Assembly: GCA_963754655.1 (NCBI GenBank)
Contig: CAVWGN010000001.1
Coordinates: 352,001 to 416,000 of the forward strand
DNA length: 64,000 nt
Origin: an uncultured Chlamydiae bacterium
GTDB taxonomy: Bacteria > Chlamydiota > Chlamydiia > Chlamydiales > Parachlamydiaceae
Reading direction: 5' to 3'
Shown here: positions 43,652-44,317 of the stretch, piece after piece
How the letters are laid out: the number at the start of each line of letters is the position of its first letter
Position numbering within the stretch: position 1 is the first letter of the stretch
Notes under the pieces: generated by a model
The model's input: only the letters and a program-made list of their open reading frames with translations
Told to the model about the DNA's origin: nothing
The model's database searches: none
Position numbers and translations under genes: made by a program

Positions 43652-43748
43652 TTAGGCCTGAAGGGCCGTCATGTTACAGCCCAGGTCGCAGCGAAGCGGA
43701 GGCCTGGGTAAAATAAAAAAAGAATCGAGTTCTGAAAGGACGGCATAA
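43652..43748 (+). repeat. Three-hairpin REP-like unit (family 1) downstream of the transposase
   Basis: GGCCTGAAGGGCC-GTCATGTTACA-GCCCAGGTCGCAGCGAAGCGGAGGCCTGGGT-19 nt-GTTCTGAAAGGAC-GGCATAAA; first two hairpins identical to the units at 20.9, 25.6 and 60.7 kb. Confidence 0.92.
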
Positions 43749-43749
43749 A

Positions 43750-44202
43750 TTAATCCCACAAATATTTTTCGTCATATGGAATATTAGCTCGCTGTAGCAT
43801 GACCAAAAATTCTTCTTTAAATGTAACAGTTTTATGATGCTCTTTTTGGGAAGAAAGATATTTTTTTGCTCCTTCTAGATTGGGCCTGGAGACAGAAAAT
43901 CCTGCATACCCTCCTTGCCAAGCGAAATCTTGATACTGATCTCCTTTGGTTTTAATCCATCGAGATGAACTTGATTTCATTTCTGAGATGAGTTTGCTGA
44001 TCGCTATTGTTTTTCCTAATTGCAGTAGGACATGGATGTGGTCTTCAACTCCATTGATTTTTATAACTGGGGAATTGAGATTGTGGCAAATACCGCTGAT
44101 GTATTGATATAACTCTTCTTCAATATTAGGTTGGATCCAAGGGATACGCTCTTTAGTGCTAAAAACGCAATGTAGAATAACGTCTGCTAAAGATTGTGCC
44201 AT
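43750..44202 (-). CDS. tnpA: Y1 (HUH) transposase, IS200/IS605 TnpA superfamily, RAYT-like
   Basis: LHCVFSTKER, HUH motif DHIHVL, FAWQGGY, catalytic-Tyr helix KKYLSSQKEHH. AAGGAG RBS precedes the ATG at 44202. No tnpB adjacent. Confidence 0.9.
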   Translation of the reverse strand: MAQSLADVILHCVFSTKERIPWIQPNIEEELYQYISGICHNLNSPVIKINGVEDHIHVLLQLGKTIAISKLISEMKSSSSRWIKTKGDQYQDFAWQGGYAGFSVSRPNLEGAKKYLSSQKEHHKTVTFKEEFLVMLQRANIPYDEKYLWD

Positions 44203-44220
44203 TGATAACTCCTTTGACCA

Positions 44221-44317
44221 TACCTTCTGTTCAGGCTCCATTTTTTTATTTTTACCCAGGTCTCCGGTTCACTCCGACCTGACCTGGGGCTGTAACATGA
44301 TGGTCCTTCAGGCCTAA
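44221..44317 (-). repeat. Three-hairpin REP-like unit (family 1, diverged) upstream of the transposase, inverted
   Basis: Minus strand reads GGCCTGAAGGACC-ATCATGTTACA-GCCCCAGGTCAGGTCGGAGTGAACCGGAGACCTGGGT-A-rich spacer-degenerate third hairpin. Confidence 0.85.

Follow-up and report, generated by a model that had tools for sequence, protein, structure and literature searches.

In a REPtron, as described in PMC8266576 and 10.1101/2021.07.10.451892, a single-copy HUH transposase gene of the RAYT family stands between inverted, strand-polar hairpins, the repetitive extragenic palindromic sequences (REPs). Gene-less doublets of the hairpins (REPINs) are dispersed in extragenic DNA, and each paralog has one repeat family. 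Apart from RAYT membership, these features recur in the DNA considered here, a stretch of 64,000 nucleotides (hereafter the window) from an uncultured Chlamydiae bacterium. The window, positions 352001-416000 of contig C1, contains tnpA-Y1, a gene for a small Y1 transposase that is flanked by inverted copies of a three-hairpin DNA unit. The genome, labelled G000, consists of a 3.12-Mb chromosome and a 35-kb contig (C2); the other G-numbers used below are working labels of the genomes compared. Unlike the published REPtrons, the system has a protein of another class, and its unit consists of three hairpins in 90-100 nt as opposed to one GTAG-footed hairpin. Furthermore, the locus is not conserved in the genus, and the doublets ride in MITE shells (miniature inverted-repeat transposable elements) that have target duplications. 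The system works like a REPtron but lies outside the RAYT family; it fits subclass 1.2 of the TnpA-Y1 proteins except for that class's reported lack of repeats.

Subclass 1.2 is listed as 'REP: no', and as occurring mostly in Cyanobacteria and Bacteroidetes, by Quentin, Siguier, Chandler and Fichant (2018, PMC6006769). The protein encoded in the window agrees with the description given there in its DH[IV]H, WQ and Y---Q--HH motifs, in a length close to 148 residues, in a 30-residue C-terminal tail, in low copy number and in having divergent paralogs. It departs from that description in its conserved partner, an inverted three-hairpin unit of which there are hundreds of copies, and in belonging to a clade composed mostly of Chlamydiota. 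The system also resembles 'IS200 Group 3', the IS200 group closest to the RAYTs, which is described by Bertels, Gallie and Rainey (2017, 10.1101/119735) as lying on the IS200 side, with no duplicates, no members on plasmids and abundant flanking 16-mers; the repeats of that group are not described in the text of that preprint. The resemblance to the insertion sequence (IS) transposases of the IS200/IS605 type (IS608, ISDra2; subclass 1.1) extends to the fold, to the HUH and YxxxQ active site and to a score above the cut-off of model NF033573. The window protein differs from these in forming a separate clade, in the lack of tnpB, in being single-copy, in its inverted flanks and in being almost never found on plasmids.

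TIRtrons, or TIRYTs (Di Nocera et al. 2013, PMC3733652), are likewise Y1 genes placed between long inverted repeats that form dispersed dimers and clusters. Some of these repeats are self-complementary, and the hosts include Koribacter. The TIRYTs are described as RAYT-like and many have a GGGGWSAS motif, whereas the text of that paper contains neither a three-hairpin consensus nor Chlamydiae. The Rfam motif Acido-Lenti-1 (RF01687), to which the unit of the window is related, was catalogued as an RNA by Weinberg et al. (2010, PMC2864571), whose alignment includes matches in NC_008009, and it is still 'of unknown function' in a 2026 preprint (10.64898/2026.10.21.760802). Unlike the catalogued RNA, the motif behaves here as the DNA partner of a transposase. 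Some members of the four TIRYT groups may belong to subclass 1.2, and a partial prior description of such a system under the TIRYTs is possible. NC_008009 is presumably the Koribacter genome.

The gene and the structures that adjoin it are as follows.

43750-44202, minus strand: tnpA-Y1 gene of the subclass 1.2 type, 150 residues, with the HUH motif H55-I56-H57, catalytic Y115, Q119, W95-Q96, the Y---Q--HH motif and a C-terminal tail ending in KYLWD
43654-43749, plus strand: downstream three-hairpin unit, complete, reading toward the gene, 92% identical to the dispersed unit
44220-44315, minus strand: upstream unit, decayed, with mismatches in hairpin 1, hairpin 2 lengthened by a 6-nt insertion and hairpin 3 broken
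43597-43653, plus strand: one end of a MITE shell of 'type B', whose counterpart upstream of the gene is lacking

The longest frame of tnpA-Y1 spans 43750-44241 on the minus strand (163 residues), but the start at 44202 is common to all 52 aligned homologs and gives a protein of 150 residues. This protein matches Pfam Y1_Tnp with E=7.8e-25. The gene stands without tnpB between a DUF1796 gene and a class II ribonucleotide reductase, so that the stand-alone transposase of the original prediction holds. Ratios of dN/dS are 0.07-0.12 against five homologs with measurable dS, a sixth being saturated; the open reading frame (ORF) is intact and, judged from these values, under purifying selection. 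No other copy with more than 50% identity exists in the genome, and an ordinary multi-copy IS was rejected on this ground: near-identical copies of the gene with its ends, as expected of an IS200-type element, do not occur at other loci. The genome has five other full-length paralogs, which are 37-49% identical, and each of them adjoins its own repeat family.

The motifs DHIH, FAWQ and YLSSQKEHH, together with the length of 150 residues, match the entry for subclass 1.2 in Table 1 of PMC6006769; the assignment rests on motifs, length and the tree described below, not on the profiles of the original authors. All 52 aligned homologs have H55, H57, W95, Q96, Y115, Q119 and H123 without exception, and F128, E131 and Y143-D150 of the C-terminal tail are conserved among them. 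With the IS200 model NF033573 the protein scores 64.4 bits, above the cut-off of 55, although typical members score 125-160. The predicted fold (pLDDT 96) is nearest to the TnpA proteins of IS608 and ISDra2 (E 3e-9), followed by TnpA-REP 4ER8 (E 6.8e-6), and sequence comparison likewise points to IS608 and ISDra2. A tree of 69 rows was built from 41 of 42 chosen subclass 1.2 loci, 21 IS200/IS605 and 7 of 9 RAYT proteins. The window protein lies in a clade of 12 rows (support 100/95), of which 11 are from Chlamydiota and one is labelled Verrucomicrobia, outside the IS200/IS605 clade (21 rows, 100/100) and outside the RAYT clade (7 rows, 100/99); the subclass 1.2 rows do not form one clade. By these sequence criteria the protein is a TnpA-Y1 of subclass 1.2, and neither a RAYT nor an ordinary IS200/IS605 transposase. 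One locus, L028 (G021 C2:38744-39604), has a 307-residue frame with two subclass 1.2 domains in tandem, which resembles a fused dimer.

The gene had been predicted to be RAYT-like, and a true RAYT, domesticated, inherited vertically and itself dispersing REPINs in trans, would explain that it is single-copy and that 351 matches of its unit lie outside genes. It would also explain why one paralog is syntenic with the congener G002 and why the family occurs in only 2 of 72,556 plasmid records, both longer than 600 kb, compared with 1,873 records for the genome's own IS605 TnpA at a stricter cut-off, in a collection that is rich in taxa without this subclass and thus biased. An approximately unbiased (AU) test gives p=0.31 for the chlamydial clade as sister of the RAYTs. 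Against this, the RAYT model NF047646 gives only 22.6 bits where the cut-off is 80, and the Y-x-x-x-NP catalytic motif of the RAYT rows is replaced by YLSSQKEHH in a protein that lies outside the RAYT clade. The gene is also missing from its locus in all three congeners, its close homologs share no neighbours, and the dispersed copies end at MITE termini with target duplications. RAYT membership is largely refuted, and this explanation as a whole is distinctly unlikely. What survives of the predicted REP/REPIN-RAYT system is the REPtron-like layout, found across phyla, and the near absence from plasmids.

The downstream unit consists of a 5-bp stem with a GAA loop, a 12-nt linker ending in CAG, a long stem, a 20-nt spacer and another 5-bp stem with a GAA loop. 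The upstream unit is aligned by BLASTN over just 62 columns at 81% identity; about 73 of 99 columns match in a full alignment. Of the two inverted three-hairpin flanks of about 95 bp that had been predicted, the downstream one is therefore confirmed, whereas the upstream one is degenerate. Past the unit the downstream arm continues for 57 nt, and this stretch (43597-43653) belongs to the end of another MITE shell. Across phyla the stem sequences vary while the geometry is fixed: the first stem, of 5 bp with a GAA, GGA, AAA or AAC loop, is separated from the long stem by 12-13 nt, of which the last three are [ACT]AG, and 20-25 nt beyond the long stem stands another 5-bp stem closed by a triloop. 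The parser selects for pairing, so this geometry is a description and not a test. The foot of the long stem is [ACT]AG (ACAG at the window gene) and not the GT[AG]G of REPs.

The unit is tied to the gene by position and by orientation. Inverted flanks are present at 61 of 85 subclass 1.2 loci and at none of 27 IS200/IS605 loci; loci with flanks shorter than 250 nt were dropped from this count, which retained 85 of 95 subclass 1.2, 27 of 30 IS200/IS605 and 4 of 9 RAYT loci. An inward-reading module of hairpins 1 and 2 lies within 300 nt of the gene at 54 of 72 loci (72 of 80 were kept after removal of those with flanks shorter than 200 nt), and on both sides at 29 of them. The corresponding numbers are 1/138 for distant windows and 1/27 for IS200/IS605 loci, and modules reading outward occur at 17 of the 72 subclass 1.2 loci. 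GNA triloops are found in 165 of 356 triloop hairpins on the inward strand versus 25 of 330 on the other strand. The five paralog types differ in their repeat families, one per type, and the downstream flank of the window's gene matches up to 327 places. Comparison across loci thus demonstrates the pairing of gene and unit, the polarity of the unit and its fixed geometry.

When the unit is read on its reverse strand, its hairpins 2 and 1 match the Acido-Lenti-1 motif. One of the eight units in the window is matched by the Rfam model (60631-60685, 38.7 bits versus a gathering score of 37), and the genome has at least 113 matches at E<=0.001. Among 20 homolog loci, 6 of 8 Acido-Lenti-1 matches are within about 120 nt of the gene and point outward on both sides. 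Rfam classes the motif as a small RNA, and unit clusters are enriched between convergent ORFs (38 of 132, compared to 182 of 1,069 background gaps), as might be expected if the units were RNA elements - small RNAs, terminators or mRNA stabilizers - that control the gene and its neighbours and on which the enzyme does not act. Such a role is very improbable. GNA triloops are stable in DNA rather than in RNA, and three-base GNA or AAC loops on 5-bp stems suit DNA hairpins; the units read toward the gene from both sides, on opposite strands, and the hairpin sequence tracks the paralog. The unit looks like a single-stranded DNA structure, its loops and polarity favouring DNA over RNA.

The unit had been predicted to be dispersed outside genes, and a genome-wide BLASTN search confirms this. 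There are 351 matches in 137 clusters; 250 matches reach a length of 90 nt or more and 129 are identical over 96 nt, numbers that exclude chance. The 258 full copies all have their midpoints outside ORFs of 150 or more residues, although such ORFs cover 75% of the chromosome. Six further units occur in the window in three pairs, located in the following elements, to which no strand is assigned.

20572-21033: outward doublet in a MITE core with a triplicated central spacer; units 20598-20693 (minus) and 20912-21007 (plus); shell 20523-21082
25464-25761: 298-bp MITE core with an outward doublet and a 54-nt centre; units 25490-25585 (minus) and 25640-25735 (plus)
25415-25810 and 25295-26135: 396-bp shell and CTAG-ended shell around the 25464-25761 core
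60564-60860: MITE core with an outward doublet; units 60590-60685 (minus) and 60739-60834 (plus); shell 60515-60909; Acido-Lenti-1 match 60631-60685

The three pairs had been described correctly, and they face outward, but they are not bare doublets. Each of them is situated in a core of about 298 bp with terminal inverted repeats, which is enclosed in a shell of about 396 bp and often in further shells. Nearly all of the 118 outward clusters of the genome are built on the 298-bp core, the ends of which are 26-37 nt past the units; 73 of these clusters have the 396-bp shell on both sides and 7 have a CTGAAG shell. Every outward doublet carries one triloop-strand unit on each strand. Eleven of 14 free cores are bordered by an 8-bp direct repeat that matches at 7 or 8 of the 8 positions, whereas only 2.7% of 182 cross-pairs match at 6 or more. 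The outer shells have target duplications of 6 bp, 8 bp or CTAG (4 bp), and the CTGAAG-ended elements have 6 bp in four of eight cases.

These elements are similar to MITEs mobilized by DDE transposases in their terminal inverted repeats, fixed target duplications and lack of coding capacity, and they differ from the usual ones in that the cargo is a hairpin doublet of an unrelated HUH system and in that the autonomous partner was not found. Target duplications are a mark of DDE transposition, whereas HUH enzymes act on single strands and leave no duplication. The latest amplification in this genome is for this reason best assigned to DDE enzymes. The proposal that the Y1 enzyme mobilized these units does not hold for their spread in this genome, where the doublets are the cargo of shells with 8-, 6- and 4-bp duplications.

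The Y1 enzyme could in principle have made the duplications itself if it nicked the two strands of a palindromic doublet at staggered positions; the shells would then be carried-along sequence. The presence of one triloop-strand unit on each strand of every outward doublet, and the failure to find an autonomous DDE partner for the 8-bp shell, would suit this mechanism. However, the termini are at differing distances from the unit and the duplications differ in length (8, 6 and 4 bp), and the shell with the same 8-bp duplication occurs without the unit. The 298-bp core ends have exact 8-bp duplications with no unit in genomes G022 and G198, and with units in G179 and G188. Moreover, duplications at unit edges are not in excess across the family: their number is not above that of shuffles in 61 loci. 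Given also that HUH enzymes are established to act on single strands without duplication, the mechanism is exceedingly improbable.

In addition to the outward doublets, the genome contains eight inward elements, designated type B. They are about 430 bp long and consist of a shell end, a unit, an interior of mostly 119 nt, a second unit and the other shell end. A 6-bp target duplication is present in five of the seven complete elements. Between the units lies the 3' part of a tnpA-like gene, with an identity of about 78% over about 95 nt and the same ending as the gene of the window, where the type B shell end is kept on the downstream side only. One type A unit (C1:1345583) also adjoins a gene remnant. 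The type B elements probably trace how doublets arise, as internal deletion derivatives of a gene-bearing cassette. A complete cassette would have lost its inner part, possibly by deletion between short repeats of the leader and of the coding sequence, before it spread in the shell.

Doublets without these shell ends occur in several other genera. Genome G007 has one intact gene, the flanks of which are the same unit as that of at least 40 inward doublets (82-92% identity; 40 of 107 candidates were scored). No target duplication longer than 4 nt was found at the doublet edge in any of 18 examined. Locus-specific inverted flanks in G007 have a median length of 12 nt, versus 10 nt across loci, and only some loci extend further. 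Six of 14 distinct doublet centres carry the octamer of the gene's last codons with at most one mismatch; such a gene remnant is only suggestive. In G177, which also has one intact gene, flanked by the unit that recurs in tens of gene-less doublets, 16 doublets show no excess of duplications over cross-pairs. In the set of 41 related genomes, the gene and Acido-Lenti-1 occur together in 15, the gene only in 3, the motif only in 5 and neither in 18; the set includes kin, so the genomes are not independent.

The locus itself is not conserved. The gene had been expected to be single-copy and syntenic in relatives, and it is single-copy, but it is found beside the reductase in none of the three congeners. 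In G001 and G002 the reductase directly meets a phosphoesterase gene with no transposase in between, and G003 has other DNA there. Homologs at 83-88% identity have no neighbour genes in common, and only one paralog is syntenic, with G002. Such a distribution, together with the patchy presence of the gene in 18 of 41 relatives, would agree with a still-selfish, low-activity IS200-like element with inverted ends, that is a 'TIRtron', which moves whole between loci and hosts, leaves MITE-like derivatives and decays, without benefit to the host. The decay of the upstream unit, here and in G024, the origin of type B as an internal deletion derivative and the occurrence of one paralog as two 99%-identical copies about 2 kb apart with a truncated third are also in line with it. 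The window's gene has no second copy, however, and its paralogs are just 37-49% identical; the family is nearly absent from plasmids, and inverted strand-polar ends, which none of the 27 IS200/IS605 loci possesses, are a misfit with one-strand peel-and-paste excision. The paralog duplicates are local and have long flanks in common, as in a segmental duplication (C1:2542103-2548281, where the two full copies are 2.1 kb apart). They are a local duplication, and a selfish element of this kind is an unlikely explanation of the whole.

The best explanation as a whole, which is probable though held with some reserve, is that tnpA-Y1 encodes a subclass 1.2 HUH/Y1 nuclease-ligase with the three-hairpin unit as its partner DNA, and that the enzyme seeds doublets whereas DDE shells amplify them. 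By analogy with IS608 TnpA and TnpA-REP, the enzyme would bind the GNA-triloop strand when it is single-stranded, the replication fork being the probable place. As a guide it might use the [ACT]AG at the foot of the long stem, in the way that GTAG is used in REPs (PMC8266576). Y115 would then nick the DNA, and the strands would be rejoined without target duplication. Gene-less inward doublets would be seeded by internal deletion of a gene-bearing cassette and outward doublets back to back, both often in the centre of existing palindromes; the taste for palindrome centres is suggested by the presence of different unit families inside the same shells. One outward doublet and one inward deletion derivative would have landed inside MITE shells of this genome, and DDE transposases would have amplified these to about 118 and 8 loci, respectively. 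The shells and the target duplications are observed, and from them we infer the agency of DDE enzymes. The cassette of the window would be a lineage-specific acquisition that can probably no longer move, its upstream unit having decayed, with the ORF still intact.

Several points weigh against this explanation. Binding, cleavage and movement of the unit by the enzyme we infer from related enzymes, and the guide role of the AG foot is an analogy only. In five of the 41 genomes the motif is present with no gene detected, four of these genomes being 68-81% complete, and G020 has many doublets of this type, yet no gene above 46% identity. An empty site for a bare doublet was not recovered, G007 having no congener in the set and the congeners of G000 being too distant. 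An autonomous partner of the 8-bp shell was not found among IS1595 elements (0/5 genomes) or ISL3 elements (0/5 genomes). Finally, a tree that makes the chlamydial clade the sister group of the RAYTs is not rejected by the AU test (p=0.31), so that its separation from them at the root and the deep branching order are tentative.

A wider reading is tentative and falls a little short of an even chance. In this reading the subclass 1.2 Y1 transposases would be a second, independently domesticated REP-type system, present in the Planctomycetes-Verrucomicrobia-Chlamydiae group, Bacteroidota and other phyla, with one three-hairpin single-stranded DNA barcode (Acido-Lenti-1) per paralog and with doublets seeded into palindrome centres. 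The genome would then have caught the birth of REPINs by cassette deletion, followed by capture and amplification in DDE-dependent MITEs. REPINs have been proposed to originate when the ends of an IS200-like element fuse (10.1101/2021.07.10.451892), and the eight inward doublets that still carry gene pieces would be a visible intermediate of that process. The unit is a candidate substrate for a transposase subclass published as having none, and the association offers a candidate function for an abundant orphan Rfam motif. Five paralog types and five repeat families in one genome make a direct specificity matrix possible. The shells are also a warning that a high repeat count beside a Y1 gene does not prove that the Y1 enzyme did the spreading. 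In a literature search that lay outside most subscription journals, no publication was found that links subclass 1.2 to Acido-Lenti-1, and none that describes these repeats in Chlamydiae; the figures and supplements on TIRYTs may overlap with the present findings.

The closest homologs of the window are in Parachlamydiaceae and other Chlamydiota. The GT92-like and DUF1796 genes at 41872-43499 form, with the transposase, a block that is missing between the reductase and the phosphoesterase gene in G001 and G002. The class II ribonucleotide reductase (44329-46354) is present in two overlapping frames of 162 and 539 residues, whereas in all three congeners it is one open frame of 674-697 residues; the split is a frameshift or a sequencing error. 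Twelve copies of a repeat with a 120-nt period (23408-25273) adjoin the element at 25.4 kb and probably belong to a repeat protein. Two further regions of the window contain other unit families.

25812-26088, no strand assigned: hairpin modules that belong to a second paralog's unit family (C1:2542103 and 2544233)
61094-64000, no strand assigned: array with three-hairpin units resembling those of a third paralog (C1:2802165-2802605) and other palindromes; it runs off the window

The array at 61094-64000 is nested and comprises at least three types of palindrome.

As to the shells, unit-free ends of the 8-bp type were not found in this genome. The MITE end with the 8-bp duplication has 180 copies in G198 and 41 in G009, often located at the ends of contigs, and the autonomous element may have collapsed in these assemblies. 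For the CTGAAG shell, only a broken IS4-like element with those ends was found. An ISAs1 partner was rejected, as the 2.5-kb element consists of a disrupted IS4-like gene that contains ISAs1 and IS630-like fragments.

The unit clusters are spaced more evenly than random intergenic placement would give (coefficient of variation 0.70 versus 0.88, P=0.002, 3,000 draws), which may be due to close copies having been lost or to target immunity. Multi-copy IS elements of at least five types have fixed insertion points in the unit or its spacer, for example at C1 8128-10073, 263508-265317, 679450-681764, 629810-631501 and 1717881-1719121; we take these to be an IS5-like, an IS256-like, two IS481-like and a short IS5-like element. 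A complete outward doublet is also present on the 35-kb second contig (C2:23897-24142), so that the MITE form of the doublet can reach what may be a plasmid.

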